Below are positions 1-52,122 of a stretch of DNA of 64,000 bases, piece by piece (positions within the stretch are counted from its first letter, which is position 1; each line of letters starts with the position of its first letter). This stretch comes from an uncultured Acidobacteriota bacterium (GTDB lineage: Bacteria; Acidobacteriota; Terriglobia; Bryobacterales; UBA6623): positions 91,429-155,428 of the forward strand of contig CAWFOP010000021.1 in the NCBI GenBank assembly GCA_963817465.1, read 5' to 3'. The notes beneath the pieces were generated by a model. The model was given only the letters and a program-made list of their open reading frames with translations, was not told the DNA's origin and did no database searches. The position numbers were made by a program, and so were the translations under genes.

Positions 1-335
1 AGATTGACGATCCATTCGCCCATCGCCGGCGGCCGGACGCCGAAAGCCATGTTCTGCGCGTAGTTCGCGCAGGTCGCGTGGTTGTCGCCGCAGATGCCGC
101 AGATCCGGCTCGTGATGAAGTGCGCATCACGAGGATCCTTGTTCTTCATGAAGATGCTGTAGCCGCGGAAAATCGACGACGTGCTATGACACTCCGCCAC
201 TTCCCGATTTTCAAAGTCGATCTTCGTGAAGATGCCGAGACTGCCGACGATCCGCGTGATCGGATCCCAGTTCATCTCAACCAAATTTCTTTTCTTGTCA
301 GATGTGTCCGAAGCGCTCAGCGTGGAGGTGGCCAT
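1..335 (-). CDS. [NiFe]-hydrogenase large subunit, N-terminal 111 codons (gene continues beyond window start)
   Basis: My own minus-strand translation from ATG at 335 gives MATSTLSASDTSDKKRNLVEMNWDPITRIVGSLGIFTKIDFENREVAECHSTSSIFRGYSIFMKNKDPRDAHFITSRICGICGDNHATCANYAQNMAFG. RICGICGDNH is the N-terminal Ni-binding CxxC (L1) motif, in the form I associate with group 1h/5 enzymes. The gene starts 20 nt after the small-subunit stop. It is absent from the ORF track because it has no stop inside the window. Confidence 0.85.
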   Translation of the reverse strand, partial: MATSTLSASDTSDKKRNLVEMNWDPITRIVGSLGIFTKIDFENREVAECHSTSSIFRGYSIFMKNKDPRDAHFITSRICGICGDNHATCANYAQNMAFGVRPPAMGEWIVN

Positions 336-355
336 GGCGGTTGTCTTTGCTCCTC

Positions 356-1417
356 TTAATATCCGCGGGGGTGGTAGCCGGTCGTCAGTTGTGTTCCCGG
401 ATGGCGCCACCTGGGTTCCTTATTGACCGTGGCATTGGTGAACGAACGCAAAGCTCGGATCGCTTTGCCGTACGTGCTGACCATGTTCGTCGACACGCGC
501 GCGCCGGGCGGCGCGTCCATGAAGGGCATGAACTTGTCGGGAAAGCCGGGCATGGTGCAGCCGATGCAGATTCCGCCTACGTTCGGACAGCCGCCGATGC
601 CGGCCATCCAGCCGCGCTTGGGCACGTTGCAGTTGACCACCGGCCCCCAGCAGCCGATCTTGACGATGCATTTCGGCGAGCCGTATTCCTCGGCGAAGTC
701 GCCCTGCTCGTAGTAGCCGGCCCGATCGCAGCCTTCGTGCACCGTGTCGCCGAACAGCCAGGTCGGCCGCAGTTGGTCGTCCAATGGAATCATGGGCGCC
801 AGACCCGCCACTTGGTAGAGCAGATACAGCAGCGTCTCCATGAAGTTGTCCGGCTGCACCGGGCAACCCGGCACGTTCACGATGGGCAATCCGGCCTTCG
901 ACCGCCAGCCCCAGCCCAGGTAGTCGGCCAACCCCATCGCGCCGGTGGGGTTGCCTTCCATGGCGTGGATGCCGCCGTAAGTCGCACAAGTGCCGCAGCC
1001 GACGACCGCCAGCGCGTTCGGCGACAACCGGTCGATCCACTCGTTGGTGGTGATCGGCTGGCCGGTGTTGGAATCGGTGCCCAGCGCCGCCCAATACCCT
1101 TCTTCCTTGATGCTCTCGTTCGGGATCGAGCCTTCGACGACGAGGACGAACGGGTCAAGCTTGCCCTCCGCCGCCATGTACCAATACTTCATGAAGTCGT
1201 CGCCGACCTCGTATGCGATCACGGGATTATGGACATGAACTTTAGGAAGCCCGGGGATCGCGCCCAGGACGATGTCTTCGATGCTTGGTTGCATCGCGGC
1301 CGTGATCGAAACCGAGTCTCCGTCGCAGCCCAGCCCCGAAGTCATCCATACCACGTGAATCTCCGGAACCGGCGAAGGTCGTTGCGTCTTCCGGCCGTAA
1401 GGAATGTTATCCGCCAT
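356..1417 (-). CDS. [NiFe]-hydrogenase small subunit (S1), no twin-arginine signal; probably a cytosolic group 1h-like enzyme
   Basis: 353-aa ORF with the FeS-cluster Cys motifs GLGCDGD, GCGTCATYGG, PGCP, HEGCDR, CIVKIGCWGP and GGCPNVGGICIGC. The N-terminus MADNIPYGRK lacks an RRxF Tat motif. It lies directly upstream of the large subunit. Confidence 0.9.
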   Translation of the reverse strand: MADNIPYGRKTQRPSPVPEIHVVWMTSGLGCDGDSVSITAAMQPSIEDIVLGAIPGLPKVHVHNPVIAYEVGDDFMKYWYMAAEGKLDPFVLVVEGSIPNESIKEEGYWAALGTDSNTGQPITTNEWIDRLSPNALAVVGCGTCATYGGIHAMEGNPTGAMGLADYLGWGWRSKAGLPIVNVPGCPVQPDNFMETLLYLLYQVAGLAPMIPLDDQLRPTWLFGDTVHEGCDRAGYYEQGDFAEEYGSPKCIVKIGCWGPVVNCNVPKRGWMAGIGGCPNVGGICIGCTMPGFPDKFMPFMDAPPGARVSTNMVSTYGKAIRALRSFTNATVNKEPRWRHPGTQLTTGYHPRGY

Positions 1418-1551
1418 ATCCGCCCTCCAGCGCCGTGATCGGTCCGCTTTACGTCGCGAATTGCGCCGTGCGACCCACAGTGCGCCTTATAACTAAGCCA
1501 TGAGGGGGATATGCCGCGAAAGCGGGTGCGCCCCGATCCTTTAGTCGGACA

Positions 1552-1580
1552 TTCCCCGTTAAATCGATCGGGGAATCCCC
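1552..1580 (-). other. Stem-loop / palindrome cluster immediately after the response-regulator stop codon
   Basis: TTCCCCG (1552-1558) pairs with CGGGGAA (1569-1575) around a 10-nt loop. This overlaps the palindrome GGGGAATCCCC (1570-1580). It sits 7 nt after the stop at 1587 and has no clear U-tract. Confidence 0.3.
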
Positions 1581-1586
1581 GGTGGA

Positions 1587-2234
1587 TCAGAGTTTATTCG
1601 TAACCGTCCACTCGACCGCGTAGCGCATCAGCTCGCGCACGCTGCCCAGCGCCAGCTTTTCCTTGAGGTGGGCTTCGTAGGTTTCGACCGTCTTCACGCT
1701 CAGGTGCAGCGCCTCGGCGATCTGTCGTGTGCCGGCGCCTTCGCCCATCAGCCGAAACACTTCGAGCTCGCGGTCCGACAGTCTCGAGATGGGCGAGCCC
1801 CCGGGATCGGCGCCTCGCGCCACTCGATGCAGCATGCGGCTCGAGATGTGATCGCTCACATAGATTTCGCCCGCCAGAATGCGCCGCACCGCAGTCAGCA
1901 CCTTCTCGGTCGCCTTCTGCTTCATGATGTAGCCGTTCGCTCCGGCTCGCAGCGCGCGCTCCGCGTAAGTGTCTTCATCGTGCATCGACAACATCAGCAC
2001 GGGCAGCGTCGCGTTGCGCGCGCGTATCATCTTGAGCAGTTCCAGCCCGTCCGGTCCGTTGAGCGAAATGTCCAAGATCACGAGGTGCGGATTCTGGGTG
2101 TCGACGGCCTTCAATGCGGCGTGCATCTCTTCCGCGTCGCCGCACACTTCGAGATCGGGCTCGCGGTTGATCAGCAGGCGCATGCCTTCGCGAATGATCG
2201 GATGATCGTCCACCACCAAGATCCTCCGCTTCAT
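1587..2234 (-). CDS. Response regulator, NarL/FixJ (LuxR-type HTH) family
   Basis: REC motifs MKRRILVVDDHP and LVILDISL. C-terminal LuxR HTH LSDRELEVFRLMGEGAGTRQIAEALHLSVKTVETY. I chose the ATG at 2234 (GAGGA 9 nt upstream); the longer ORF from the ATG at 2270 is also possible. Confidence 0.85.
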   Translation of the reverse strand: MKRRILVVDDHPIIREGMRLLINREPDLEVCGDAEEMHAALKAVDTQNPHLVILDISLNGPDGLELLKMIRARNATLPVLMLSMHDEDTYAERALRAGANGYIMKQKATEKVLTAVRRILAGEIYVSDHISSRMLHRVARGADPGGSPISRLSDRELEVFRLMGEGAGTRQIAEALHLSVKTVETYEAHLKEKLALGSVRELMRYAVEWTVTNKL

Positions 2235-2277
2235 CGTTTCCGGTCCTCGCTGAAGTTTGGCGGTTTGCATAATTTAC

Positions 2278-3765
2278 CTAATCCCCCGGAAAGTGACATG
2301 TCACGGTCGTGCCGCCGGCGGCCGACGCAATCTCGAGCGAGCCGCCGATCATCCTCGCGCGGTGCTCCATGATCTCGAGGCCCATTCCGCCGCCTTTCCG
2401 CGGCCGCGCCTGAATGCCGCATCCGGAGTCGTGAATGACCAGAGAGCTTTGTCCATTTCCGGCGGACAACAGGATTTCTATCCGCTGCGCGCCGCCATGC
2501 TTGATGCCGTTGTGAATAGCCTCCTGCGCGATGTGAAACAGATGGCTCGCCGCGCTGGGGTCTCGAATCAACACAGGCGGGCCCGGGTCGAAATGGCATT
2601 TTATGCCGAAAACATCCTCCACGTCTCGGGCGAGTTGTTCCAAACCTGTCATTAACCCGTCCGGTTTTGGCGAAATGGGCATCAAGCCCCGAGAAAGTTC
2701 GCGCGCTTTGCGAATCGCGTCATTCACATGCCGCACGATCGTCGCCGCGTCCGCCGCTTCGGGCAGCGATTTCTCGGCTAGCCTCTGCTCGTGGGCCTTG
2801 CTCACGAACGCAATCCCCGTCAGCAGTTGACCCAAGCCGTCATGCAGATCCTGTCCGATACGCCGCTGCTCGCGCCCGCTCGTCTCCAACAAGGCCGCCT
2901 CCAGCCGCTTGCGGTCCGTGATGTCGGTCCCGGTTGCGATGAAATATTGAACGGCGCCGGCTTCGTTGCACAGCATCGTGAGCGCCCACGAAACCAGCCG
3001 GGGAGCGCCGTCCGAACCGCCCCATTGGGTCTCGAAATCTTGGCTCGAGCCTTGCGTCTTCAACTGCTCCAGAGCTTCGCGAAAGCGGTGAGCTTGCTCG
3101 GGAAGCGGTATCAAGTCCCACAAATATCGGTTGTGAACGCGATCCGACGACAATCCCGTCGATTGCGTGCACACGCGGTTGAAGCGCACGATGCGCATCC
3201 GCGAGTCGAGCACGATCACCAACGTTCCCACCGAGTCCAAAATCGCCGACGCTACATTGCGCTCTTGCGCGAGCGCCGCTTCCGCGTTCTTCAGATCCGT
3301 GATGTCAAAGGCGATCCCGTGGATGAACCAAGGTTGACCGCTCGAGCGCCGCATCATGCGCGCCTCGCACTGGAACCAGACGGTCCGGCCCTCCTTGGAC
3401 AGCACCCGATAACCCGACCGCAGCGGCTTGCCCTGCAGCAGCATGTCCGCCGCCTCCACGCTCCAGCGCTCCTTGTCGTCCGGGTGGATCTGCTGATACC
3501 AGCGCACCGGGTCCTGCAGCCATTCGGTCTGCGAGAATCCCAGAGCCTCCTCGATTTGCGGGCTCACGTACGCCTGACCGGCGCCTTGCTCCAAGTCCGC
3601 CATGAACACGACCGCGGGGATCTGCTCCACCAGCGCCTGGTAGCGTGTCTCGACGCTGGGCGACGGCTCCTCGGGGCCAGCCTGGCCGAGCCCGTCCATC
3701 CGCAAGCCGAAGGACCCGGCCAAATCCCTGAGTAGGCTCTCCGCGGCGGCGTCGTAGCGCATCAT
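2278..3765 (-). CDS. Cytoplasmic sensor histidine kinase, two PAS domains + HisKA_3 + HATPase_c
   Basis: H-box RRIGQDLHDGLGQLL, N-box HNGIKHGGA, G-boxes HDSGCGI and GMGLEIMEHRA. PAS-like repeats precede them and there is no TM segment. The real start is MMRYDAAAE at 3765, where the ATG overlaps the upstream gene's TGA (ATGA, 3762-3765). The 216 extra N-terminal residues in the track ORF are an out-of-frame read through the upstream gene. Confidence 0.85.
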   Translation of the reverse strand: MMRYDAAAESLLRDLAGSFGLRMDGLGQAGPEEPSPSVETRYQALVEQIPAVVFMADLEQGAGQAYVSPQIEEALGFSQTEWLQDPVRWYQQIHPDDKERWSVEAADMLLQGKPLRSGYRVLSKEGRTVWFQCEARMMRRSSGQPWFIHGIAFDITDLKNAEAALAQERNVASAILDSVGTLVIVLDSRMRIVRFNRVCTQSTGLSSDRVHNRYLWDLIPLPEQAHRFREALEQLKTQGSSQDFETQWGGSDGAPRLVSWALTMLCNEAGAVQYFIATGTDITDRKRLEAALLETSGREQRRIGQDLHDGLGQLLTGIAFVSKAHEQRLAEKSLPEAADAATIVRHVNDAIRKARELSRGLMPISPKPDGLMTGLEQLARDVEDVFGIKCHFDPGPPVLIRDPSAASHLFHIAQEAIHNGIKHGGAQRIEILLSAGNGQSSLVIHDSGCGIQARPRKGGGMGLEIMEHRARMIGGSLEIASAAGGTTVTCHFPGD

Positions 3766-4964
3766 CGCTCGTTCTCCGCGTCGGTCTTGTCGCCTGTGCG
3801 GCGGTCTCTCCACGCCGGCGCCTTGTTCAGCGACGCTTGCGTAAATCGGCGCAGCGCATGAACCGCCCGGCCGTAGGTGGAAACCGCGCTCGACGACAGC
3901 AGCGATCCCGGCGGCTGGTTCATGAACGGCATGAACTTGTCCGGGAATCCCGGCATCGTGCAGCCGATGCAGATTCCTCCTACATTCGCGCAGCCGCCCA
4001 AGCCTCCCATCCAGCCGCGCTTGCCGACGTTGCACTGCACGACCGGACCCCAGCAGCCCAGCTTCACGATGCATTGCCGCGAGCCGTACTCGTCGGCGAA
4101 CTGGCCTTGCTCGTAGTAGCCGCCGCGGTCGCAGCCCTCGTGCACCGTCTCGCCGAAAAGCCAGGTCGGTCGCAGGGCGTCGTCCAGCGGAATCATCGGC
4201 GAACGACCCGCGGCCATGTACAGCAGATACAGCAACGTCTCGGTCATGTTGTCCGGCTGCACCGGACACCCCGGCACGCAGACGATCGGGACGCCGCCGC
4301 GCGACTTCCACTCCCAGCCCAAATAGTCCGGCAAACCCATGCACCCGGTCGGGTTGCCTTCCATAGCGTGCAGCCCGCCGTAAGCCGCGCACGTCCCGGT
4401 GGCCACCACCGCCCAAGCGTTCGGGGCCAAACGATCGATCCAGTCGCAGGTCCGCACCGGCGCCCCGGATTCGTCCGTCCCGAAGGTCGCCCAGTAGCCC
4501 TCGCCGGCCAGGCTCTCGTCCGGAATCGAGCCCTCCACTACCAAGATGTAAGCTCCTGCTTCATCTCGCGCCGCGCGGCGGAAGTGTTCAATGAACTCCT
4601 CGCCGTTGTCGTAGGACAAAAAAGCGTTGTGAAGTGTGACACGCGGCAGCCAAGGAAGTGAGCCGAGCAGCAGTTCTTCGATGCTCGGCTGGGTGGCGCC
4701 GGTCATGGCGATCGTGTCGCCGTCGCAGCTCAGGCCCGCGTTCAACCAGAGGATTTCGACTTCCTCAATAGGCTTCAATACGACCCCCGCGGTGGACTGG
4801 AGTATTCTAGCCCATCGCCCCTCCGCGCCAATCGGAATTCTGATGCGGCGCTGATTGGCCGGCTCTCCCCCGGGAAAATCCCCGGTACTGGGACCGCCGT
4901 ACTTGCGGTTTCCGCGTCTCACCCAGCCCGTCGGGGGGCCTTCCCACTCGTCCGTTAGTACCAA
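3762..4964 (-). CDS. Orphan [NiFe]-hydrogenase small-subunit paralogue (S2), no adjacent large subunit
   Basis: It aligns with S1 over ~330 aa (roughly two thirds identical by eye) and keeps all Cys motifs: GLSCDGD, GTCAAYGG, PGCP, HEGCDR, CIVKLGCWGP, GGCANVGGICIGC. The start is uncertain. The track uses TTG at 4964. An internal TTG at 4778, preceded by GGGGG, would give an N-terminus of similar length to S1. Confidence 0.8.
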   Translation of the reverse strand: MVLTDEWEGPPTGWVRRGNRKYGGPSTGDFPGGEPANQRRIRIPIGAEGRWARILQSTAGVVLKPIEEVEILWLNAGLSCDGDTIAMTGATQPSIEELLLGSLPWLPRVTLHNAFLSYDNGEEFIEHFRRAARDEAGAYILVVEGSIPDESLAGEGYWATFGTDESGAPVRTCDWIDRLAPNAWAVVATGTCAAYGGLHAMEGNPTGCMGLPDYLGWEWKSRGGVPIVCVPGCPVQPDNMTETLLYLLYMAAGRSPMIPLDDALRPTWLFGETVHEGCDRGGYYEQGQFADEYGSRQCIVKLGCWGPVVQCNVGKRGWMGGLGGCANVGGICIGCTMPGFPDKFMPFMNQPPGSLLSSSAVSTYGRAVHALRRFTQASLNKAPAWRDRRTGDKTDAENER

Positions 4965-5178
4965 TTCACATATGTGTCTTTACACTTAGGCCCCGCAATA
5001 CTTAAGTTGTATGCAGGTCGAGGGGAGCTGCTTAGGACCCTCGGCCGACCGCACTCCCCCTTGTCCGCGAGACGTTCTCGCCCGAAGCGACTCGACGGTT
5101 CCCCCCAGGTGCGACCTCTGATGGCATGCGGACGACGCACGAGCGGAGTTCGGATAGGAAGGGTGTGTAGAAAAATCG

Positions 5179-6216
5179 ATGCGGATTTTGATCACAGGCA
5201 ATGCGGGCTATTTGGGTCAGGCGGTTGCGCGGTTGCTCGCGGCGAACGGCCATGAAGTCGTCGGAGTTGACAACGACCTCTACAAGAGCTGTTTGCTCGA
5301 TGCGGAAACGCATCGCCCGACTCTTCAGATCAAGCGCGACATTCGCGACCTCGAGCCCGGCCACTTCAAGGGCGTCGGTGCGGTCATCCATCTGGCGGGG
5401 TTGTGCAATGAGTCGCTGGTCCGCCTGAACCCGCACCTGACTTTTGAAGTCAACATCGAAGGCGCCTTGGCCGTCGCACGCGCCGCCCGGGCCGCCGGGA
5501 CGCCGCGTTTCGTCTTCGCTTCCAGTTGCGACGTTTACGGCGCCGCCGCGGGACAACGCGTGGACGAAGACGCCCCCTTGCACCCGGACAGCGCCTACGG
5601 AGAATCCAAGGTCTTTGTGGAAGCCGAGCTGGCGAAGCTGGCGAGCGAGCATTTTTGCCCCGTTTCGCTGCGGCTGCCTGACGTCTACGGGTTCTCACCG
5701 CGCATGCGCTTCGACCTGACCGTAAACGGGCTCGCGGGCAGGGCCGCCGCGACCGGCCGCGTTCAGCTTCGGACGCCGCCCGCCGACTGGCTGCCGATCC
5801 TCCACGTCGACGACGCGGCGGAGGCGTTCCGGCTGGCCGCGACCGCACCTTCCTATCAAGTTTGGTCCGAAGCGTTGAACGTGGGCAGCGAGGAGGCGAT
5901 TCACCGCACGCACGACATCGCCGAGACGATCGCCCGCCATTTCGGCGGGGCGCCGGTGGAATTCGCGCTCGAACGGCGGCCGAGGGCCGCCGTCTGTCGC
6001 CCCTCCTTCCAAAAGATCCGCGAGCGGTTGTCCGGGTTCCAGCCCGCCTGGGACCTCGAGCGCGGCGTGATCCAAATGCGCGACGCGTTCTTCAAGAGAA
6101 ACGTGACGGCCGTGGACATCGAAGGTCCGCGCTTCGATCGCTTGGCGCACCTCCGCTGGCTGTTTGACGCCGGTTCTCTGACCGAAAATCTACGCTGGAC
6201 CGCCGCCGCGCCATGA
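5179..6216 (+). CDS. NAD-dependent epimerase/dehydratase (extended SDR) family protein
   Basis: MRILITGNAGYLG Rossmann motif and the SAYGESK (YxxxK) catalytic motif. Confidence 0.8.
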   Translation: MRILITGNAGYLGQAVARLLAANGHEVVGVDNDLYKSCLLDAETHRPTLQIKRDIRDLEPGHFKGVGAVIHLAGLCNESLVRLNPHLTFEVNIEGALAVARAARAAGTPRFVFASSCDVYGAAAGQRVDEDAPLHPDSAYGESKVFVEAELAKLASEHFCPVSLRLPDVYGFSPRMRFDLTVNGLAGRAAATGRVQLRTPPADWLPILHVDDAAEAFRLAATAPSYQVWSEALNVGSEEAIHRTHDIAETIARHFGGAPVEFALERRPRAAVCRPSFQKIRERLSGFQPAWDLERGVIQMRDAFFKRNVTAVDIEGPRFDRLAHLRWLFDAGSLTENLRWTAAAP

Positions 6217-8692: not shown

Positions 8693-10870
8693 ATGCGCTC
8701 AAATTGGGTCGCCGCCGTCTGGCTGCTGCTGTTCGCCGCTCATTTGCCGGGGCAGAGCATCACGGGCGAGCTCGAGCAGTGGCATGACGTCACGCTGACC
8801 TTCGACGGGCCGGCGGCGAGCGAGACCGGCGATCCGAACCCTTTTCTCGACTACCGCCTCGACGTCGTCTTCACCAAGGGCTCGAAATCGCTGCGGGTTC
8901 CCGGCTACTTCGCCGCCGACGGCAACGCCGCCGAGAGCAGCGCGACGGCCGGCGGCAAGTGGCGTGTTCACTTCGTCCCGGACGAGACCGGTGAATGGGC
9001 TTACACGGCCTCGTTTCGCGCGGGGCCGGGCGTCGCTGTGAGCTCTGATCCCGAGGCCGGCGCGGCGGCGCCGCCCGACGGAACATCCGGGCGCCTCGTC
9101 ATCGAACCAAGCGACAAGACAGGCCGCGACAATCGCCGCCGAGGCACGCTGCGCTATGTCGGCGAGCACTATGCGCGCTTCGCGGGTACGGGGGAATCCT
9201 TCATCCAGGCCGGCACGCAGAGCCCGGAAAACTTTCTGGCGTATTACCAGTTCGACGGCACGGCCGACCACGGCGGCGCGGCGAACAAGCTGGTCGACGG
9301 CCTGCACCGCTATGAGCCGCACGTCAAAGACTGGCGGCCCGGCGACCCGACCTGGCAAGGCGGCAAGGGAAAGGGGATCATCGGCGCCCTGAACTACCTG
9401 GCCGGCAAAGGCATGAACACGTTCTACTCGTTGACGATGAACGTGGGCGGCGACGGCCGCGAGATCTATCCGTGGACCGCTTACGACGAGCGCGTGCGCT
9501 ACGACGTCTCCAAGCTCGCGCAGTGGGAAATCGTCTTCTCCCATATGGACAAGCTGGGCATGCAGCTCATGGTCATCACCCAGGAGGAGGAGAACGAGCA
9601 ACTGCTGGGCAAGCTGACGCCGCAGCGCAAGCTCTACTACCGCGAGCTGATCGCGCGCTTCGCGCATCACCATGCCTTGCTGTGGGACCTGTCGGAGGAA
9701 GCCGACCGTTGGCGTTATTATTCGGGCGACGACCTCAAACAAATCGCGAGCTACATCAAGAGCCTCGATCCGTGGCGCCATCCCATCCAATACGTGCAGT
9801 GGAAAGGCGAGCTGATCCCCGACGCCAAAGGTTATGGTCGTCTCCTCGGCTTCAACGACTTCGACGGCGTCGCGCTGCAGCATGATCCCGAGCATACGCA
9901 CGCCCAGACATTGAAGTGGGTCGAGGCGTCGGAGCGCGCGGGCCACCCGTGGCTGACAGGCCTGATCGAGATCAACCCAACCAGCACCGGCGTCGTCCCC
10001 GATGAGAACGACTATTGGCACGACACCGTGCGCAAGCAGTCGATTTGGGGCAATTTGATGGCGGGCGGTTCGGGGTCGGTTTTCTTCTTCGGCTTTCGCT
10101 ATCCCAACAGCGACCTCGACACCGAAGACTGGCGCAGCCGCGACCACTTTTGGGACCTCGAGCGTTATGCCCACGACTTCTTCACCAAGTATTTGCCCTT
10201 CAACCGCATGCACAGCGCGGACGCGTTGACGCCGGCGGCGGACGACTTCGTCTTTGCCCAGCCCGGCGAGGTCTATGCGGTCTATTTGCCCGATGGCGGA
10301 ACGGCGCAGCTCGATCTGCGCGCGACCGCGGGGCGATTCGACGTGACCTGGTACGATCCGCGGCACGGCGGCGAGCTCCGGACCGGGAGCGTCCGCGAAG
10401 TCGAAGGCGGCGAAATCCGCTCGCTCGGCGAGCCGCCGAACGAGCCGTCGCAAGACTGGGCGGCGCTGGTGAAGCGGCGCGGCGAGCCGCCGCTGCTCAC
10501 GCTCTCCGAGCCGACGCGCTTTCTGGTCAAGCTGGGCCAAGACATCGGCTCGTCCGCGAGCCGTCCCGGCGACCTGGTGACCGCCGTCGTCATCTCGCCG
10601 GAGCGCTTCCTGGGCGGAAGCTTCGAGGGCGAAGTCGACCAAGCGTCTTCCTCCGGCCGGCCATCGCTAGGGTTTACATTCCACAGGCTGCGCTACAAGG
10701 CTTCGACCTACCGCGTCGCGTCCACGATCGCGGACTTCGTCAACTCCAAGGGTCACCACGCAGTCGACGAGCAAGAGCATGCAGTGCGGATCGTTGAAGG
10801 CGCGCTAACCGCCTCGTCGACGGAAATCTCAATCGCGGAGGGAGCGGAATTCCAACTCGACATAAAATGA
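8693..10870 (+). CDS. Secreted glycoside-hydrolase-like protein (DUF5060-type N-terminal domain + TIM-barrel GH5-like region)
   Basis: Signal peptide MRSNWVAAVWLLLFAAHLPGQS. The N-terminal WHDVTLTFDGP...LDYRLDVVF pattern recalls the DUF5060 family. This is assigned from memory of the family, not from a search. Confidence 0.5.
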   Translation: MRSNWVAAVWLLLFAAHLPGQSITGELEQWHDVTLTFDGPAASETGDPNPFLDYRLDVVFTKGSKSLRVPGYFAADGNAAESSATAGGKWRVHFVPDETGEWAYTASFRAGPGVAVSSDPEAGAAAPPDGTSGRLVIEPSDKTGRDNRRRGTLRYVGEHYARFAGTGESFIQAGTQSPENFLAYYQFDGTADHGGAANKLVDGLHRYEPHVKDWRPGDPTWQGGKGKGIIGALNYLAGKGMNTFYSLTMNVGGDGREIYPWTAYDERVRYDVSKLAQWEIVFSHMDKLGMQLMVITQEEENEQLLGKLTPQRKLYYRELIARFAHHHALLWDLSEEADRWRYYSGDDLKQIASYIKSLDPWRHPIQYVQWKGELIPDAKGYGRLLGFNDFDGVALQHDPEHTHAQTLKWVEASERAGHPWLTGLIEINPTSTGVVPDENDYWHDTVRKQSIWGNLMAGGSGSVFFFGFRYPNSDLDTEDWRSRDHFWDLERYAHDFFTKYLPFNRMHSADALTPAADDFVFAQPGEVYAVYLPDGGTAQLDLRATAGRFDVTWYDPRHGGELRTGSVREVEGGEIRSLGEPPNEPSQDWAALVKRRGEPPLLTLSEPTRFLVKLGQDIGSSASRPGDLVTAVVISPERFLGGSFEGEVDQASSSGRPSLGFTFHRLRYKASTYRVASTIADFVNSKGHHAVDEQEHAVRIVEGALTASSTEISIAEGAEFQLDIK

Positions 10871-43344: not shown

Positions 43345-44415
43345 TCAAGCGCGCCGCCTGGGAAGGTACACTCCTTCAAAAAAGGCACGTCGACCTTGAT
43401 GGCGACCCGCGTCCATTGGTATTAAGTTCGCCTGGATCAGAACCGAGTGGACAGTCTCATCAAGCTCCCGACGTCCCTCCGGCTGGATTTGCCGCTCCAC
43501 CCTCACCGATCGAAGGCCTTTCGTATAGACGACCCGTCCAACCATGCCGGCAATCATGATCAACAGGACCACGACGTGCCACCAACCGAACGGGAGCACA
43601 CCGATTAGCTCGAGCGCGATCACGGCTGCGGTCAGCAGCACGGCGGTCAGCTGCGGTTCTGAGAACGCATATACGAAATACCGTCCTGGATCTCCCCTCA
43701 GGAATTCAAACGAGAAACGCCCGGCGCCATAGCCCACAATGTATAAGGCAACGTTCTCACCCGGCGCATGATGTAGGATGTGCGTGGCGATTGCGAGCCC
43801 GGCTAGCATAAATAGCCACGTAGCCTCCACCAGCTGAACCGGAAAGAGCCGTACTCCTCTGACAAAATAGAAGTATCCGGTTGCGGCGTGCCTGCTTCCA
43901 TAGCGGACGCCCCATCCGCTGGGTCGACCGTGACAGCATCCCGCCATAAAACACCCCACTCTGCCAAAAGCCTGATACACGAGCAGGGCAACGACTAGAA
44001 TGTCCAAATATGCGAAGACAGGTTCTCTCAGCAGTAGAAGGAGCGCTACGGTGAAGATCAGCGCCACAATCTGAAAATGATAGACGCCCTTCTTCGCCCA
44101 GTTCAGCAGGGAGTAAGAGCGCCGTAGCAGTTTAGTGCTCTTGAACAGGGCGAACGACAACATAGCCACCAATCCCACGATTGTCGCTAGCACCGAGATG
44201 GAAACCGGGGCCGTAGAGGCGAGTGCGAAAAGAACGCCGGTACCCACGACCACCCCGGAGTAGATCCATACGAAGTAGCTATTCCAGGTTCGTCCAAAAC
44301 AGGTAATCTCGCGCTTCGCGGCCGCGTCCATGAGAAGATTAAAGAGCCGTTGAATTTGAGCTTTCATGAACGTTCTTTTGCTCCTTATCGCTATTCCTAA
44401 TCCTTCACCGATCAT
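43345..44415 (-). CDS. Lgt-family (prolipoprotein diacylglyceryl transferase-like) polytopic membrane protein
   Basis: Seven or so hydrophobic helices plus FGRVGCFMAGCCHGRP, the G-R-x-G-C-x-x-x-G-C-C-x-G variant of the Lgt signature as I recall it. It is the last gene of the RiPP island. An alternative start is ATG 44367. Confidence 0.55.
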   Translation of the reverse strand: MIGEGLGIAIRSKRTFMKAQIQRLFNLLMDAAAKREITCFGRTWNSYFVWIYSGVVVGTGVLFALASTAPVSISVLATIVGLVAMLSFALFKSTKLLRRSYSLLNWAKKGVYHFQIVALIFTVALLLLLREPVFAYLDILVVALLVYQAFGRVGCFMAGCCHGRPSGWGVRYGSRHAATGYFYFVRGVRLFPVQLVEATWLFMLAGLAIATHILHHAPGENVALYIVGYGAGRFSFEFLRGDPGRYFVYAFSEPQLTAVLLTAAVIALELIGVLPFGWWHVVVLLIMIAGMVGRVVYTKGLRSVRVERQIQPEGRRELDETVHSVLIQANLIPMDAGRHQGRRAFFEGVYLPRRRA

Positions 44416-44422
44416 GATTTAC

Positions 44423-46759
44423 TTATATCTCAAGCGCATCACGCTCCAGTAAGAGAACGGAAGGCGCTTTCCGATCGTACAGCCGGAGATAGAAGTAGCC
44501 GACGCCGCTAAGCCCAAGCATGAGCCCCGGCGCTCTCGACCCTAGAGAGCCGAAGGGCCATTGATGTCGTCGTGCTCCATGCTTGCGAATCCCCTCAGCA
44601 GCCACTTTCATGGCCACTTCGCGGCCATCGGGGAAGGCGTCCCCGAGGATCTCAGAACCAATGGTGAGAATGTCGGCATTGCCGGCAAGACCGTGGCAGA
44701 GCGAGAAATTGAATACTCCAGAGTCGAGGGTGCGCAAAGTCCATCGCAGCGTCGTCGTCAAGGCCGTGAGGGCTTCGGATCTACAGCGCTCATCGTCCAA
44801 GACACGGAAGGCATGGAGGCGCGAAAGGGCGATGCCGGCGGCTCCATGGCACCAGAAGGCCGGGAAGTCGACAGGACAGTCGATCCTTGTCGCACGCGCA
44901 GGCACGCCGCGGAAGTCCGGCCAATTACCCAACTCTTCGTTGAACCAGAGCCGCTCATACTTGAAGGCGTCTTGGGCGAGGTCGCGGTACTCGGTATTTT
45001 GAGTGGCCCGATACAATTCGATCAGGCCGTGGGCGACGCCCGCCGTACCATGTGAGAGTCCGAGCAACCCGCGTTGTTTTGGAAAGTCCGGAGACTTCCA
45101 GGAACAACATTCGCCTTTTCTTTGTGCGGCTCGAACGAGTTGGCTCCCTAGTTGAACTGCGAAGTCCGAACGGTCAAAGCCGCCCAGGATATGGCCCAAT
45201 ATCAGGAGTGCAACGATAGCGCCGCCGCTCCCGGATACCAGGTCGGCGCTAGAAACAACCGGATTCCGCCGCAGGGCATCCTCCACTAGGTGCACGGCGC
45301 GGCGGACAAGGTCCTCCTCGCCGAGCCGCCTGCCGACGTAGGCGGCCGCGACCGCTACGCCCAGGACGCCTTCATATAAGCCCAGCCCTTTGCACAACGA
45401 CGGCGAACAGGAGGCGGATATCGCCTGCCGAATTGCACCGAGAGCAGTCCGCCGCACGGCAATCTCGCCAGTGGCCGCATGCAGTTCCGCCAGAAACAAG
45501 GCAATGCCACTCGTCCCGGCATAAAAATCGGGTCCAAGCGTCTGATACGCCAACCCAGAGTCATACTGCCGCGGAAGGCTATTTTGCGGAAACCCGACAC
45601 CCATCCAGTTGCATCGCTCGTCGTGCCAAATCGCGGCCTCACAAAGAAGGCTCCCGATGTCAAATGCTGTCTCCAATAGCGTCTCTCGGCGGATCGCGGG
45701 CTGTTTGGGAATTCGACGGCCTCTCGCGGTTCCGGGGAGCCGGGAACGGGGTGCAAGGTGGAAAATGTCTTCAGAACCAGGATTGAGAAACGGCTGATCG
45801 AGCGAGACTCCCTGTTCGTCAAAATAGTCCTGCACGGCCGCTACACGCCCGCTGACCGCTGTTTCGCGCAACTCCGCAACGCGCACTAGACCTTCGGCCA
45901 GTATTTGACAGCGGTGCATGCCGAAACTAACCCCCCGGTTTGGCTGCTCCGCTATCCCGAGGCCCAGGCGGAGCCGCTTGGTAAATGCCGGCGTCTCGTT
46001 CTTTAGGTACGGCGCCACTTTGGGCTGAATCAACTCCAGCAGCGGCCGGATACGCGAGTAATCCTCTTTGGCCGTGTAGAGGACCGCAGAATCAGCCCGT
46101 ATGAATAAGTTGGGGTCGTCCACGACCTTCAGCCTGTACGGAATGCGGTCCCGGTTGAATGTTGAAGTTAGAGCCCGCATCAGGACGGTCGCCCCTTCCG
46201 CATGAAGATTCCAATACAGCCTGACGACGGGCGTGTTGCCGCCCGTTGGCAAAACCTCATCTCCCATCGCCTGGTAGAATCCCGGCGACATGAAGGGCAG
46301 CTCTTTCGGCATCGATGTCGAGACTTTATCGCCCTTGATCGGTTCAACTCGAAGAAAGGAGGTCTCACCGTCATTGACATAGAGGCGAAGTCCATTCTGT
46401 TGTATGGCGATCAAATCGCCTTTTTGGTCAATCACCTCCCAACCATGCTGCACAAATCCTTTGCCGTGGTTGGCTGCGGAAAGTGCATTGACAAACGCGC
46501 TCTTTGATGAAACCGGCGAGGGTTGCGCCTCGAAGGATTGCACCGGCACAGCAGCGCCTTTGCAGTAGAAGTGGCTATAGAGCCTCTGTTGCAGTCCGTG
46601 AATGAGGCAGGTCCGCGCGGTTTCCGGAGGTAGCGACCGTCTCAGGCGCAGCGGAAGGGTAGTCTCATGTTCCCAAAACCAAAACCAGGAGAAGGGAGGT
46701 TGAACCTGCGTGGCCTGCACGGCTGACCGCAATCGCTCAACGTGTTCACACGTGCTCAT
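44423..46759 (-). CDS. Fusion protein: N-terminal HopA1-like (putative phospho-Ser/Thr lyase) domain + C-terminal LanC-like lanthionine cyclase
   Basis: C-terminal LanC motifs: AGTSGIALFLAELH, LSHGTAGVAHGLIEL, FWCHGAAGIALSRL and SLCHGLAGNADIL (Zn ligands Cys, Cys-His). The N-terminal ~340 aa (RLYWNLHAEG...RLKVVDDPNLFIRADSAVLY...PAFTKRLRLGLGIAEQPNRGVSFGMHRCQILAEGL) matches my memory of the HopA1 effector-family pattern. No search was run. Confidence 0.7.
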   Translation of the reverse strand: MSTCEHVERLRSAVQATQVQPPFSWFWFWEHETTLPLRLRRSLPPETARTCLIHGLQQRLYSHFYCKGAAVPVQSFEAQPSPVSSKSAFVNALSAANHGKGFVQHGWEVIDQKGDLIAIQQNGLRLYVNDGETSFLRVEPIKGDKVSTSMPKELPFMSPGFYQAMGDEVLPTGGNTPVVRLYWNLHAEGATVLMRALTSTFNRDRIPYRLKVVDDPNLFIRADSAVLYTAKEDYSRIRPLLELIQPKVAPYLKNETPAFTKRLRLGLGIAEQPNRGVSFGMHRCQILAEGLVRVAELRETAVSGRVAAVQDYFDEQGVSLDQPFLNPGSEDIFHLAPRSRLPGTARGRRIPKQPAIRRETLLETAFDIGSLLCEAAIWHDERCNWMGVGFPQNSLPRQYDSGLAYQTLGPDFYAGTSGIALFLAELHAATGEIAVRRTALGAIRQAISASCSPSLCKGLGLYEGVLGVAVAAAYVGRRLGEEDLVRRAVHLVEDALRRNPVVSSADLVSGSGGAIVALLILGHILGGFDRSDFAVQLGSQLVRAAQRKGECCSWKSPDFPKQRGLLGLSHGTAGVAHGLIELYRATQNTEYRDLAQDAFKYERLWFNEELGNWPDFRGVPARATRIDCPVDFPAFWCHGAAGIALSRLHAFRVLDDERCRSEALTALTTTLRWTLRTLDSGVFNFSLCHGLAGNADILTIGSEILGDAFPDGREVAMKVAAEGIRKHGARRHQWPFGSLGSRAPGLMLGLSGVGYFYLRLYDRKAPSVLLLERDALEI

Positions 46760-47894
46760 GACGCCGTCCCGGCAACGGAAGCCCCAATAGCTGCACAGCG
46801 GCTTCCATCGGCCGGGCTAAGATGTTGGAACATAGTTGCAGTAGAGAAACGGCACGAGCGCCAACGCTAGCTTCAACCTGCGATTGCTCGTATGCGGTTT
46901 GGACGAGCCTGACGCCAGCGAAGCTGACGGCGCGCAAGAGCCAAGCCTCTTCTTCGGCAGCGGAAATTCTCATTCGACGGCGGTAGACGCTCCAGAAGGC
47001 TCGTAAAGCAGGCTGCATCCGATGCAGTGGAAACAGGGCAAGACTCAGGAATTGGTCGGGCGGGTGATCGTTGGAGATCGGGATCGATGACAGCCAAAGC
47101 GTCAAGTATTCACTGAAGACCGTGCCGACGTCCCAGCAGGGGTCGCCCAATCGCGCCAACTCCCAGTCGACGATCTTCAACTCAGCCTCCGGGCGAGGCG
47201 CCTCGGCGCATATCAGGCAGTTGTCCCACTTGAGGTCGCCATGGATGAACGTCTCATTCGTCCACTGACCTCTGCAAGCTTCGAATGACTTGCAGAGCTG
47301 ATCCGATTCCTGAATGATCTTAATCAGATCCAGACTCGCCAGGCTGGAATGTAGATAGACCCATTGATCAGGAACGGGAAGAAAAAACACCCATGGCGGC
47401 TTTTCGGGCGCGCGAAGGCTCTTGGTTACGTGGGTTCTTTCCAGCGGCGACGTGTTGTGACACTCGGCAAGCGCCGCAGCCAGCAACCGGGCGATTGTGG
47501 ACGGGAAACGGCCTCGACGCAAGCAATGATCCCGAAGAGTCGTCGATTCCAAGAAAGCTTCGATGATCAGGACTTGCTCGGCGCTATCGAACGCGTAGTA
47601 GCGAGGAAGCGCATGAAAGCCGGCTCGACCGGAATAGACAGTCGCCAGCAATTCATAGACGGCAGCCTCGTACGCAACCGTGGCGAACTTCCGGCGCCGT
47701 GGCGGACTCCCCCTGGTTTCCTGCTTGAGGAAATAATGCGGCCCTTTGCCGTTGATCACTTTAAGGTTGCCGTTGCGCCGAGACGCATTCACAACAGAGA
47801 CGCCGTCGCCAACGACCGCCGCACTCGACACCCACCCCTCGTTCAGCAGGTAGCGTACGACATCTCCGTATCCGGTCAGCACTGACCTAGGCAC
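46746..47894 (-). CDS. Stand-alone phosphotransferase (APH / protein-kinase-like fold)
   Basis: Brenner motif FIHGDLKWDNCLI and IVDWELARLGDPCWDVG. Its stop overlaps the next gene's ATG by 14 nt. Confidence 0.75.
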   Translation of the reverse strand: MPRSVLTGYGDVVRYLLNEGWVSSAAVVGDGVSVVNASRRNGNLKVINGKGPHYFLKQETRGSPPRRRKFATVAYEAAVYELLATVYSGRAGFHALPRYYAFDSAEQVLIIEAFLESTTLRDHCLRRGRFPSTIARLLAAALAECHNTSPLERTHVTKSLRAPEKPPWVFFLPVPDQWVYLHSSLASLDLIKIIQESDQLCKSFEACRGQWTNETFIHGDLKWDNCLICAEAPRPEAELKIVDWELARLGDPCWDVGTVFSEYLTLWLSSIPISNDHPPDQFLSLALFPLHRMQPALRAFWSVYRRRMRISAAEEEAWLLRAVSFAGVRLVQTAYEQSQVEASVGARAVSLLQLCSNILARPMEAAVQLLGLPLPGRRHEHV

Positions 47895-48785: not shown

Positions 48786-49663
48786 CTAGGCGGCGGTGAT
48801 GCGTTCGACTCTTACTTTGGCTTCGACGTCGTGCTCGCCGCCGCCCAGGATGACGCCTGTTACCGGGCTGACGTCGCTGTAGTCGCGGCCCCAGGCGACC
48901 GAGAAGTGGCCGTCGCTGGGCATGACGTTGTTGGTGGGGTCGAAGTCGACCCAGCCGAACTGCGAGCACCAGGCCGAGACCCAGGCGTGTGAAGCTTGGT
49001 CGCCGACGACCCTGGGGCCGGGCTTGAGGTAGCCGCTGACGTAGCGCGCGGGCAGGCCGATCGAGCGCATGCAGCCGATCATCAATTGGGCGAAGTCTTG
49101 GCAGACGCCGCGCTTGTTCTTGACGACCTCTTCGAGCGGCGTGGCCACGGTGGTCGCCTCGGGGTCGTACTCGAATTCGCTGATGGATGCGCTCGCCTGA
49201 GCTCGCGGGCGGCCTCGAGCAGCGGGCGGCCGGGCGTGAAGCTTTTTCGGCGTAGGCGGCCAACTGGGGCCGCAGGCGGACGTTCGGGCGACTCGAAGCA
49301 GAATTCAAAGGCGTCGAGCGCGTCGAGCGTTTCATGGGCGCGGACGACGGCTTTGACGTCTTCCCACGGCGGACTCATGGCCGCGGCCGGGGGCTCGCCG
49401 CCGGTCAGCTCGATAAGGGAGACGCCGCTGACGCTCATCTTCGAATGCGGCTCGCCGATCGTGAAGTAGTTGACGTAGTTGCCGAAGTAGTCTTGGCGCA
49501 GCGCGGTGTCGTAGGGCGCGGGTTCGACGATCAGGCGGTGGCGCACGACCTTCTGGCGATCGCCGGCGCGCGGGCGCAGGCGCACCTCGTTGTAGCAGAG
49601 GGAAACGCGCTCGGTGTAGCCGTAGATCGTCGTGTGGGTGACGCGAAACAACATGGCGATCAA
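48786..49663 (-). pseudogene. Transglutaminase-family protein gene (Bact_transglu_N + Cys-His-Asp core) broken by about 4 frameshifts within ~110 bp
   Basis: The N-terminal part MIAMLFRVTHTTIYGYTERV...DALDAFEFCFES is in one frame and the core ATPLEEVVKNKRGVCQDFAQL...SHAWVSAW...DFDPTN is in another. The joining segments SPNVRLRPQLAAYAEK / SFTPGRPLLEAAREL / SERIHQ / EFEYDPEATTV alternate between frames. Candidate indels are at GGG 49286-49288, TTTTT 49244-49248, ~49196-49201 and ~49179-49181. Confidence 0.75.
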
Positions 49664-52122
49664 TTCCGCGACAGTTGGCGCGACGCGACGGCGTGAATGA
49701 GGTAGCGCCGCGTGAGAGCCTCGGAAACAGCGGGCAATTCCTCGGCGAGCTTCGCGAGCAGCTCTTCGAGGTGAACGCGGGAGCCGTCGGGCCCGAGCGA
49801 AGCCAGGCGCTCGAGGTCGGCCAGTCGCACCGCCGTCAAGGCGCCGAGAACGATGCGAGCGGCGGGCGAGCGGCGCACGGTGGGCGGCCCTTGCGGCAGC
49901 TCGTCGATGTGCTCGCTCATGCGCGCGAGCTGAAACGCCACCGAGCGCGGGTTGGCCTCGTCGATGAGCAGCAAGTCGATGGTCAAGTCGTCTTGCAGCG
50001 ACGTGAGGTAGCGCGAGCGGTAGGTGATGGAGCTGTCGGCGATCTCGAGCAGCATCTCGAGGCGCGCGCGGCTGTTTTCGGCGGGCGTGGCCAAGCCGCG
50101 GCGCAGCAGTTGGACCAGTTGGATGGCGCGCTCGAGGCGGCGGCCGACTTCGAGCAGGCGCCAGCCGTGGCCCCGCGTCATGCTCTCCATCACCAGGCCC
50201 GAGAAGGCTGAAAGCGAGATGATCGCGCGGTCGAGCAGATCGAGCGCCGAGCTGACGCGCGTGGGCTCGACCGGGTGCGATTCGGTGAAGTCCTGATGCA
50301 GCCGGTTGAGGATGCGCCAGGCGTCGGCGGAGATGCGGTCGCGCAGCAGCCAGGCGAGCCGGCGCAAGTTCTGAACTCCCCAGCCGAAGCCGCCGCGGCG
50401 CTTGGCGTCGTAGATCATCGCCGTCAGCTCGCGTTCGAGCAGACGCGCGGGGTTGCGCCGGGCGTCTACGCCCTCGGCGATGGTCAGGTAACCCATGTCG
50501 CGCAGCAGCGAGACGGCGGCGTGAAGCGCCGAGGCGGCGCCGCGGACCGACTCCTCGGCGAGCAGCGGCAGCACGCTGCGCACGATGCGTACCGAGGCGT
50601 CGACGCGTTCGGCGTAACGGCCGAGCCAGAAGAGATTCTCGGCGACGCGGCTGGGCAGGTCGAACGTCGCGCGGCTGACGTCGATGGGCTGCGCGCGGGG
50701 TCGCAGCAGCGTGAGGTCGGGCGATTCGGTGTCGCCCAGCACCCAGGTGTCTTTGCTGCCGCCGCCCTCTTGCATCGAGACGTCGAGCGTGTCGATGGAG
50801 GGGGTAAAGCGCGACAGACCGCCGGGCATCACGGCGTAGTTGTCGCCATCGGAGACGGCGTAGACGCGGACGACCAGGTAGCGCGGCTGCATCTTGCCGT
50901 CGACCCAGGTGGGCGTGGTCGACAGGGACACGCGCTCTTGCGCGATATAGCGGTGCGGCGAGGCGCGCATCTTCGCGAGCAGCGATTCGCGCTCGTTGGC
51001 GCTGAGCTTCGAAGCAAAGATCGGCTCGCGGCGGCGGCGGACGGTCGCGCCCTTGACGACTAATTCGTCGAGGTGGTCGATGACATAGGAGCGCGGCTTA
51101 TCTTGCCCGCACCACCAGGTCGCGACCGACGGGACGCGCAGCTCTTCGCCAAGCAGCGTACGGCAAAGCGCCGGCAGGAAAGCCGCCATGGCCGGCGCCT
51201 CGACCAGGCCCGAGCCGAGCGAGTTGGCGACGGTGACGCCCCCGGCGCGGACGGCTTGAACGAGCCCGGGCACTCCGAGCATGGAGTCGCCGCGCAGCTC
51301 GAGCGGGTCGCAAAAACTGTCGTCCTGGCGGCGCAGGACGAGGTCGATCGGCAGCAGGCCGCCGAGGGTCTTGAGGTAGACGCGGTTGTCGCGGCAGGTC
51401 AGATCGCCGCCCTCGACGAGCGTATAGCCGAGGTAGCGGGCCAGGTAGGCGTGCTCGAAGTAGGTCTCGTTATAGGGCCCGGGCGTGAGGACCGCGATGC
51501 GCGGATTCTCTTGCACGCTGTGGGCCTGCGCGATGAGCGCGTCGCGCAGCTTTTGGAAGTAGTGCGCCAGCCGGCGCACGTTCGCCTTCTCGAAAAGGTC
51601 GGGGAAAGAGCGCCGCATGACGATGCGGTTTTCCAGAGCGTAGCCCGAGCCGGACGGCGCTTGCGTGCGATCGGCGACGACCCACCACTGGCCGTCGGGC
51701 GCGCGCACCAGGTCGGCGGCGTAGATCGTGAGGAATGAGCCGTTGTTGGGCTCGATGCCGTGACAGGGGCGCAGATAGCCGGGATGGCTGAAGATCAGGT
51801 CGGGCGGCAGGCGGTTCTCGGCGAGCAGGCGGCGGGGACCGTAAAGGTCCTTGAGGATCAGGTTGAACAGGCGCGCGCGCTGCTGGATGGCCGCCTCGAG
51901 GCGCGCCCACTCGTCGCCCGCCATGATCTGCGGCATCATGTCGAGCGGCCACGGACGTTCTAGGTTGTCCTGGCTTTCGCTGTAGACGTTGTAGGTGATG
52001 CCGTTGTCGTGGATCAGGCGCAGGGCCTGTTCCCAGCGATTGCGGATTTCGGCGGGTCCGAGACCGTCGAGGCCGCTGAGCAGCTTTTGCCAGTGCGGAC
52101 GGCGGGCGCCGTCGGCCATCAT
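49660..52122 (-). CDS. Fused circularly permuted type-2 ATP-grasp protein + alpha-E domain protein
   Basis: 820 aa. The N-terminal half matches the COG2308-type pattern (WPLDMMPQI, GYLRPCHG, YAADLVRAPDGQWWV) and the C-terminal half is an alpha-E-like helical domain (NLFWLGRYAERVDA). It directly precedes the transglutaminase-like gene, which is the classical operon order. Confidence 0.75.
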   Translation of the reverse strand: MMADGARRPHWQKLLSGLDGLGPAEIRNRWEQALRLIHDNGITYNVYSESQDNLERPWPLDMMPQIMAGDEWARLEAAIQQRARLFNLILKDLYGPRRLLAENRLPPDLIFSHPGYLRPCHGIEPNNGSFLTIYAADLVRAPDGQWWVVADRTQAPSGSGYALENRIVMRRSFPDLFEKANVRRLAHYFQKLRDALIAQAHSVQENPRIAVLTPGPYNETYFEHAYLARYLGYTLVEGGDLTCRDNRVYLKTLGGLLPIDLVLRRQDDSFCDPLELRGDSMLGVPGLVQAVRAGGVTVANSLGSGLVEAPAMAAFLPALCRTLLGEELRVPSVATWWCGQDKPRSYVIDHLDELVVKGATVRRRREPIFASKLSANERESLLAKMRASPHRYIAQERVSLSTTPTWVDGKMQPRYLVVRVYAVSDGDNYAVMPGGLSRFTPSIDTLDVSMQEGGGSKDTWVLGDTESPDLTLLRPRAQPIDVSRATFDLPSRVAENLFWLGRYAERVDASVRIVRSVLPLLAEESVRGAASALHAAVSLLRDMGYLTIAEGVDARRNPARLLERELTAMIYDAKRRGGFGWGVQNLRRLAWLLRDRISADAWRILNRLHQDFTESHPVEPTRVSSALDLLDRAIISLSAFSGLVMESMTRGHGWRLLEVGRRLERAIQLVQLLRRGLATPAENSRARLEMLLEIADSSITYRSRYLTSLQDDLTIDLLLIDEANPRSVAFQLARMSEHIDELPQGPPTVRRSPAARIVLGALTAVRLADLERLASLGPDGSRVHLEELLAKLAEELPAVSEALTRRYLIHAVASRQLSRN

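Follow-up and report, generated by a model that had tools for sequence, protein, structure and literature searches.

A large part of the uptake of atmospheric H2 by soils is linked to hydrogenases of group 1h, and few bacteria are as abundant in soils as the Acidobacteriota. Among the sensory systems described so far, the small subunit HoxB of a regulatory hydrogenase docks the kinase HoxJ through the C-terminal region of HoxB, and NreB is a HisKA_3 kinase that senses via an Fe-S cluster. The subject of this study is a stretch of 64,000 nucleotides from an uncultured Acidobacteriota bacterium of the Bryobacterales (assembly GCA_963817465.1, contig CAWFOP010000021.1, positions 91,429 to 155,428; hereafter the window), in which a paralogue of the hydrogenase small subunit (S2) is followed by a sensor histidine kinase, a response regulator and the genes hhyS and hhyL (together hhySL), encoding the catalytic small subunit (S1, HhyS) and the large subunit (HhyL, or L) of a group 1h [NiFe]-hydrogenase. 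Our main conclusion, to which we assign a probability of roughly 0.7, is that S2, kinase and regulator would form a conserved Fe-S sensory module controlling hhySL, with S2 as its Fe-S input.

The arrangement itself is already noted in the literature, and its mechanism is uncharacterised. In Acidobacteriaceae KBS 83 and Edaphobacter aggregans, an extra hhyS, ~70.7% similar to hhyS, lies ca. 3600 bp upstream of hhySL, and a passage of the same paper citing Greening et al. (2015) mentions that a homologue of hhyS belongs to a putative two-component system (Giguere et al., 2021, PMC8027828), so that the preliminary description of the window, which did not recognise the arrangement as a described one, has to be corrected on this point. 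The published reports comprise a brief note and quantitative PCR, to which we add the spread over species, the residues that mark the clade, the selection acting on it and a palindrome at a promoter; literature searches brought up no functional study of the S2-kinase-regulator module. The acidobacterial hhyS-homologue module resembles the window in gene order, the kinase and then the response regulator following the homologue. In locus L082 of our survey, that of E. aggregans, the extra hhyS is 3,582 nt away from hhyS, versus 3,361 nt in the window, counted from the S2 start at 4778 to the S1 start at 1417; S2 and S1 of the window share 65% identity and 81% similarity, in the same range as the published similarity, and the E. 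aggregans kinase is 54% identical to the window kinase over residues 6-493. Judged by these similarities, the window is a further instance of the acidobacterial module, in a different acidobacterial lineage.

All five genes lie on the minus strand at the start of the window, and translation together with Pfam matches bore out the order S2, kinase, NarL regulator, S1 and large subunit that had been read from the letters at first. S2 (3762..4778) encodes a group 1h-type small-subunit paralogue of 338 amino acids (aa) with a TTG start and the Pfam domains Oxidored_q6 and NiFe_hyd_SSU_C. It is followed by a soluble sensor histidine kinase of 495 aa (2278..3765; PAS_3, PAS_4, HisKA_3 and HATPase_c), a NarL/LuxR-type response regulator of 215 aa (1587..2234; Response_reg and GerE), the catalytic small subunit HhyS of 353 aa (356..1417; domains as in S2) and, after a gap of 20 nt, the N-terminal 111 codons of HhyL (1..335; NiFeSe_Hases), whose gene leaves the window at its start. 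The translated part of HhyL carries the L1-type motif TSRICGICGDNH and shares 90% identity with the complete HhyL of L002, the closest syntenic relative, which was used for the genes beyond the window start. In L002, L003 and L085, hhyL is followed by genes for a NifU-like protein, DUF5947, DUF6084, HycI, HypC, HypD and HypE, and the gene tables of these three loci contain no second large subunit. An exact-sequence look-up of S1 found no match on record. Group 1h small subunits normally lack a twin-arginine (Tat) signal, and direct reading revealed none in S1 or S2, in agreement with the first reading of both proteins.

The closest solved relative of S2 is HofK, the small subunit of the actinobacterial-type (group 1h/5) hydrogenase of R. 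eutropha (5aa5_A; E 5e-156, 523 bits), other small subunits being far weaker matches (NiFeSe, E 1e-42; group 2a Huc, E 1e-31, 112-113 bits). An AlphaFold2 monomer model of S2, which has a mean predicted local distance difference test score (pLDDT) of 64 and is confident for the N-terminal domain only, with residues 195-291 below 50, also found 5aa5_A as its top Foldseek match (E 2e-34). By these matches S2, S1 and the large subunit are all assigned to the group 1h type. All 12 Fe-S ligands are invariant or nearly so across 66 genomic and 120 metagenomic S2 sequences, in agreement with the earlier statement that S2 keeps its ligand motifs. By homology and from what is known of 5AA5, we take C18/D21/C130/C171 to hold the proximal, H213/C216/C236/C242 the distal and C249/C263/C270/C273 the medial [4Fe-4S] cluster, the proximal cluster being bound by three Cys and one Asp.

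One genome per species was scanned, and the five proteins were mapped on all loci. More than 500 species have a relative, and the best 80 loci are nearly all from Acidobacteriota (Terriglobia). Among them are two isolates, Edaphobacter aggregans DSM 19364 (L082) and Tunturibacter empetritectus (L046), in which the gene order is that of the window. A small-subunit gene stands directly upstream of the kinase in 77 of the 80 loci, and the adjacency of S2 and kinase seen in the window is thus shared by related genomes; the regulator lies directly downstream of the kinase in 82 loci. The large-subunit gene is found in 69 of the 73 loci with enough sequence, on the same strand and downstream in 66 of those 69. 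With its order repeated in about 70 independent genomes, the arrangement far exceeds what chance would give. Some otherwise typical loci carry non-acidobacterial labels, namely L085/L086 (kinase cluster P0115, Burkholderiales according to one source) and L042 (a metagenome-assembled genome of Deferrimicrobiaceae). A spread to Proteobacteria was considered for P0115 and set aside, as the Burkholderiales entry looks like a binning label in view of the same locus and the flanking genes of L085.

These loci speak to the suggestion that S2 has a large subunit of its own elsewhere in the genome and belongs to an ordinary sensor hydrogenase with split genes. Our inspection covered ~20 kb per genome and 64 kb of one contig, which leaves some room for such a gene; within it, two large subunits occur together within 10 kb in 0 of the 73 loci, and a tblastn search of the 64-kb window with a full-length HhyL query gave 1-335 as the sole match, so that the earlier claim of no second large subunit near S2 has been upheld. 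Known sensor hydrogenases, moreover, keep their small- and large-subunit genes adjacent. Isolates carrying this arrangement have a single gene for the large subunit (Eichorst et al., 2018), and we consider a distant partner gene very improbable.

The exceptional loci are informative as well. In loci that have the two units split or in divergent orientation, S2 remains beside the kinase and not beside hhySL. In L005 (2797-4362) and L068 the kinase and regulator occur without S2 and without hhySL nearby, and in L068 a remnant of the C-terminal end of S2, 42 aa long and immediately upstream of the kinase (9869-9994), points to secondary loss or an assembly break; in L034, S2 lies downstream of the regulator. 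The pattern can be set against the idea that S2 is an alternative catalytic small subunit, giving an S2:HhyL isoenzyme with different redox tuning or a different acceptor, while the two-component system is merely co-located. Such an isoenzyme would fit the retention of all clusters in S2, the changes near its proximal and distal clusters described below and the single L gene. However, two regulatory genes stand between S2 and hhyL, the linkage of S2 to the kinase goes as far as overlapping codons in some of the 77 loci, S2 stays with the kinase in split or divergent loci, and the three loci that have no S2 directly upstream of the kinase are also without hhySL in reach, all of which makes this explanation improbable.

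In the intergenic region between the regulator and hhyS1 lies a palindromic operator-like site (1567..1584) with the core GGGGAATCCCC at 1570-1580, for which the family consensus is ATCGGGGAATCCCCGAT; a degenerate second core, GGGGAATGTCC on the minus strand (1547..1557), stands 23 bp from the first copy. The core occurs once in the 64-kb window, at 1570-1580. Of 63 regulator-S1 spacers, 32 contain the 11-mer core with no more than one mismatch, where shuffles lead one to expect 0.19 (~170-fold), and 49 contain it with no more than two, where 2.4 would be expected. Over 1.6 Mb of loci the palindrome occurs 59 times, 38 of them within 300 nt after the regulator gene, and at one mismatch it is absent upstream of S2 (0 of 76 loci). 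When the spacers of other loci are aligned, a degenerate second copy often follows the first, and the copies are followed by a conserved CCCGCTTGTGA block and then by a strong Shine-Dalgarno sequence. In L003, L026, L047, L075 and L077, where hhySL is apart from the regulator, the palindrome sits upstream of hhyS1; because it stays there in these five rearranged loci, it belongs to the hhyS1 promoter rather than to the 3′ end of the regulator gene. From this synteny and from the dimeric helix-turn-helix class of the regulator, we infer that the palindrome is the predicted operator of the NarL-type regulator. Two other interpretations were rejected: a terminator of the regulator gene, since no T-run follows the palindrome and it remains with hhyS1 when the units separate, and a sigma-54 promoter in the CCCGCTTGTG motif, since the spacing does not fit (as judged by eye) and the regulator lacks a sigma-54 activation domain. 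Separately, a recurrent GGGGAATCCCG match to the palindrome core occurs ~2.45 kb after the regulator gene in L008, L021, L023, L041 and L069, where hhyL maps, and is taken as a by-product of conserved coding sequence and not as an operator.

The S2 sequences form an old lineage. Orthologues of S2 share 70-86% identity with that of the window and fall into one clade, whose monophyly was recovered in 92.5% of bootstraps (neighbour-joining, rooted with the NiFeSe small subunit), whereas a grouping of S1 and S2 excluding HofK appeared in only 4% of them. Measured against the spread of group 1h, the duplication is therefore an old one, and the word "inserted" in the preliminary description, with its implication of a recent event, does not hold. 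Mean identity is 87% within S1, 83.5% within S2 and 71% between S1 and S2 (63-75% inside single genomes), and with HofK it is 78% for S1 and 70.5% for S2. By its sequences S2 is thus an old, separately evolving clade, although the root position of the tree is uncertain. The ratio of nonsynonymous to synonymous substitution rates (dN/dS, Nei-Gojobori method) came to 0.053 (S2), 0.040 (S1), 0.044 (L), 0.114 (kinase) and 0.095 (regulator); these values, drawn from the 235 of 1,225 genome pairs that were unsaturated, are rough because dS is still high (~1.5-1.9). On this estimate S2 is plainly under strong purifying selection and not decaying. The possibility that S2 is a duplicate of hhyS in decay or without function could draw on the TTG start of the window copy and on the S2 homologue transcript of E. 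aggregans, which was undetected in both growth phases (Giguere et al., 2021, PMC8027828, SI-2). It is effectively refuted by a dN/dS of ~0.05 for S2 set beside 0.04 for S1 and L, by a reading frame intact in 66 genomes, by the full conservation of the ligands and by a monophyletic clade of high mean identity in which many clusters each hold hundreds of metagenomic member sequences. In KBS 83, the S2 homologue was expressed in exponential phase and rose 13-fold in stationary phase (Giguere et al., 2021, PMC8027828, SI-2).

What sets S2 apart from S1 is limited in extent and located in particular places. While 170 alignment columns are invariant and identical across the S1 and S2 clades, 12 columns show fixed differences, the changes being conservative or more hydrophobic, and these group near the proximal-cluster motifs and the distal cluster. 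From S1 to S2, DGD-SVS becomes DGD-TIA directly after a proximal-cluster motif, N becomes C four residues before the PGCP ligand, itself a proximal-cluster motif, and P becomes G (NVPKRGW to NVGKRGW) beside the distal-cluster cysteines; the remaining fixed changes are V to F, V to I, I to N, Q to M, A to G, N to Q and T to S. Two cysteines are specific to S2: Cys111, which 118 of 120 sequences have and which lies where helix 110-120 of the AlphaFold2 model begins, and Cys167, present in 117 of 120 in strand 166-168 of the model, where S1 and HofK have Asn. According to per-region entropy, constraint is relaxed at S2 residues 34-63, where S1 and HofK hold the invariant loop GAIPGLPKVHLH, and far exceeds that on S1 at residues 294-323, which are predicted to form a long C-terminal helix. 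The tails of S1, N-terminal PYGRxTQ and C-terminal ELTTGYH, are missing from the S2 clade, in which the tail is short, basic and variable.

The kinase and regulator show the classical two-component features of the HisKA_3/NarL class. The H-box of the kinase reads DLHDGLGQ with an invariant H308, HATPase_c is present, and no transmembrane segment is evident on reading its sequence. Homologues of the kinase number in the thousands, and of the 120 listed none falls below 56% identity to the query. Its PAS domains contain just one invariant cysteine (alignment A1), and its N-terminus is hypervariable save for an amphipathic motif, AExxLxELAxVF, at residues ~8-20 (window ~3742-3704, minus strand), which is a candidate docking peptide for S2. 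The regulator combines the receiver-domain (REC) residues DD9-10 and D55, identified on reading the sequence, with a GerE helix-turn-helix, and Pfam detected no AAA+ or sigma-54 interaction domain in it. Searches of NCBIfam and of Protein Data Bank (PDB) sequences found no dedicated family for kinase or regulator, the matches being generic only (MctS/MctR, NarQ/NarL, and the PAS domains of TodS and FixL).

Taken together, the reading of S2 as a sensor, which the first description had offered in two forms, a sensor that borrows the catalytic HhyL or a stand-alone Fe-S sensor, continues to be the most sensible one because there is no cognate large subunit nearby, the adjacency is conserved and S2 is not decaying. 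As a full explanation, we suggest that S2 is the Fe-S input subunit of a two-component system that controls hhySL, probably sharing HhyL with S1, and hold the whole of it at slightly less than even odds. S2 would be made together with the soluble PAS kinase and dock on it as an Fe-S partner, probably via the S2 C-terminal helix (~294-323) and/or the conserved N-terminal motif of the kinase. A minor fraction of HhyL may pair with S2 instead of S1 and so provide the signal, a proposal that we rate somewhat short of an even chance. H2 oxidised at the shared Ni-Fe site of HhyL would then reduce the clusters of S2, whose redox state would modulate autophosphorylation at the HisKA_3 histidine; S2 would thus pass electrons to the docked PAS kinase and not to the respiratory chain, while S1:HhyL would act as the respiratory atmospheric-H2 oxidase. 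The phosphorylated NarL-type regulator would bind the palindrome as a dimer and set the transcription of hhyS1-hhyL. More tentatively still, one HhyL might serve two small subunits in such a way that the high-affinity enzyme doubles as its own H2 sensor by subunit swapping.

The sharing of HhyL is favoured because very many invariant positions are common to S2 and S1, because the fixed differences of S2 are not polar, unlike what one would expect of a solvent-exposed former interface, because the changes near the proximal and distal clusters suggest redox tuning and a new partner at the electron exit, and because the expression data leave room for HhyL in the absence of S1. Specifically, hhyL transcript was detectable in exponential phase while hhyS1 was undetectable (Giguere et al., 2021, PMC8027828), and an S2:HhyL pair would therefore be allowed in that phase.

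Several observations weigh against the proposed hydrogenase-controlling sensor. Atmospheric H2 is nearly constant, and the benefit of sensing it is less obvious than in Knallgas bacteria. The PAS domains of the kinase show no recognisable cofactor motif, and in L010 (CAVUQA010000016.1, 3407-24888) S2, kinase and regulator occur with no hhyS1 or hhyL within 10 kb. A mirror-tree analysis of the pairwise distances among S1, S2, L, kinase and regulator gave no signal, with a partial r of -0.11 for S2-L, but it has no power, as the known partners S1-L reached just 0.13. The assignment of the palindrome to the regulator comes from synteny, and to these points must be added the undetected S2 homologue transcript of E. 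aggregans mentioned above.

Part of this evidence would suit the main rival, in which S2 is a stand-alone Fe-S redox or O2 sensor that works without a large subunit, gates the kinase and sets hhySL expression in starvation. Its clusters would report redox, O2 or Fe-S/iron status, or accept electrons from S1 or from a hydrogenase acceptor. Such a sensor needs no cognate large subunit, and none is present in the window or in the related loci; it would tolerate the loss of the S1-type tails and the relaxed loop 34-63 of S2, might use the two extra near-invariant cysteines as a redox-active pair, would be at home in L010, with its module but no hhySL nearby, and has a precedent in Fe-S sensing by the HisKA_3 kinase NreB. 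Isolated small subunits of [NiFe]-hydrogenases, on the other hand, are generally unstable; the 170 invariant shared columns and the lack of polar replacements are hard to square with a former interface that now faces solvent, and S2 is as strongly constrained as the catalytic subunits are. In isolates, hhySL is induced by carbon starvation and not by H2 (Giguere et al., 2021, PMC8027828), which is on the side of the stand-alone sensor. On balance we regard this rival as the less likely form, and an S2 that would share HhyL is the form of sensor that we favour.

The extent of S2 and its upstream region require some revision. The S2 reading frame can be extended to a TTG at 4964, and this longer span, 3762-4964, was the one first given. 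The extension, however, contains the promoter-like site TTGGCG-16-TAGAAT (4804..4831, minus strand), the sole sigma-70-like match in 1-5400, which could serve the S2-kinase-regulator unit; TAGAATAC is the most frequent exact 8-mer upstream of S2 (17 of 76 loci), and a looser -10-like pattern is found within 120 nt upstream of S2 in 34 of 76 loci. Among the homologues listed, S2 lengths are mostly ~330-365 aa. From the promoter match inside the extension, the shared 8-mer and the homologue lengths, the S2 coding sequence most likely runs over 3762-4778 from the TTG start, giving 338 aa, and not from 4964. At its other end, S2 has its stop codon in an ATGA overlap (3765-3762) with the start of the kinase, as had been described; the translational coupling suggested on that basis is not a conserved trait, a 4-base overlap being possible in ~5 loci only and most others having gaps of roughly 0-130 nt. 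The neighbour upstream of S2 is the divergent gene of an NAD-dependent epimerase on the plus strand (5179-6216), as Pfam confirmed.

Elsewhere in the window, an open reading frame (ORF) at 44423-46759 (minus strand) encodes a protein of 778 aa with HopA1-family and LanC-like cyclase domains; with the same-strand flanking ORFs at 46746-47894 and 43345-44415 (both minus) it may constitute a lanthipeptide-type peptide-modification cluster. A protein of 754 aa (53246-55510, minus strand) combines DinB_2 and FGE-sulfatase, the domain pair of the ergothioneine enzyme EgtB, with ~340 N-terminal residues that have no Pfam match, and a fusion protein of 820 aa (49660-52122, minus strand) joins a circularly permuted ATP-grasp to an Alpha-E domain. 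No tRNA genes and no Rfam families at gathering score were detected in the whole 64 kb.

The module, which is conserved across several hundred species and plentiful in soil metagenomes, is the obvious candidate regulator of the atmospheric-H2 hydrogenase in a dominant soil phylum. Isolates that carry it exist (E. aggregans, KBS 83 and Tunturibacter empetritectus), and diagnostic features of S2 are now defined, namely Cys111, Cys167, DGD-TIA and the C-terminal helix, together with the candidate operator ATCGGGGAATCCCCGAT. If the shared-subunit model is true, it would represent a new design principle for gas sensing and a route of H2 sensing independent of the group 2b sensors, possibly at H2 levels below one part per million (sub-ppm).

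Among known proteins, S2 is nearest to HhyS and HofK (5AA5), with ~70% identity, the same 12 ligands including the proximal Asp and no Tat signal; these proteins, however, adjoin their own large subunit, whereas S2 is followed by a kinase instead. Compared with catalytic HhyS, S2 has no tails, two extra cysteines, altered residues by the proximal and distal clusters and a conserved C-terminal helix. The pair of a soluble PAS-HisKA_3 kinase and a NarL-type regulator is shared with NreB-NreC of Staphylococcus as generally known, in which the cluster rests on four cysteines inside the PAS domain, whereas here the candidate clusters are on a separate protein, S2. In HoxBC-HoxJ-HoxA of Cupriavidus necator and HupUV-HupT-HupR of Rhodobacter and Bradyrhizobium, as in the window, a small subunit free of an export signal is encoded near a soluble PAS kinase, a regulator and uptake-hydrogenase genes. 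These group 2b sensors have a dedicated pair of small and large subunits, and the window module has no dedicated large subunit; their small subunit is of group 2 lineage, and S2 is of group 1h. They use a PAS-HisKA kinase with an NtrC-type sigma-54 activator, whereas the window combines HisKA_3 with a REC-GerE regulator of the NarL type, a difference from the HoxJ/NtrC families that was correctly called from the outset. The module stands outside the HoxBC/HupUV family because it has no dedicated large subunit, a group 1h small subunit, HisKA_3 and a NarL-type regulator. By analogy of function, it would nevertheless most resemble HoxBC-HoxJ-HoxA and HupUV-HupT-HupR, and under the shared-subunit model it would be a functional analogue of HoxBC-HoxJ that achieves its task by swapping small subunits, with no dedicated sensor hydrogenase.

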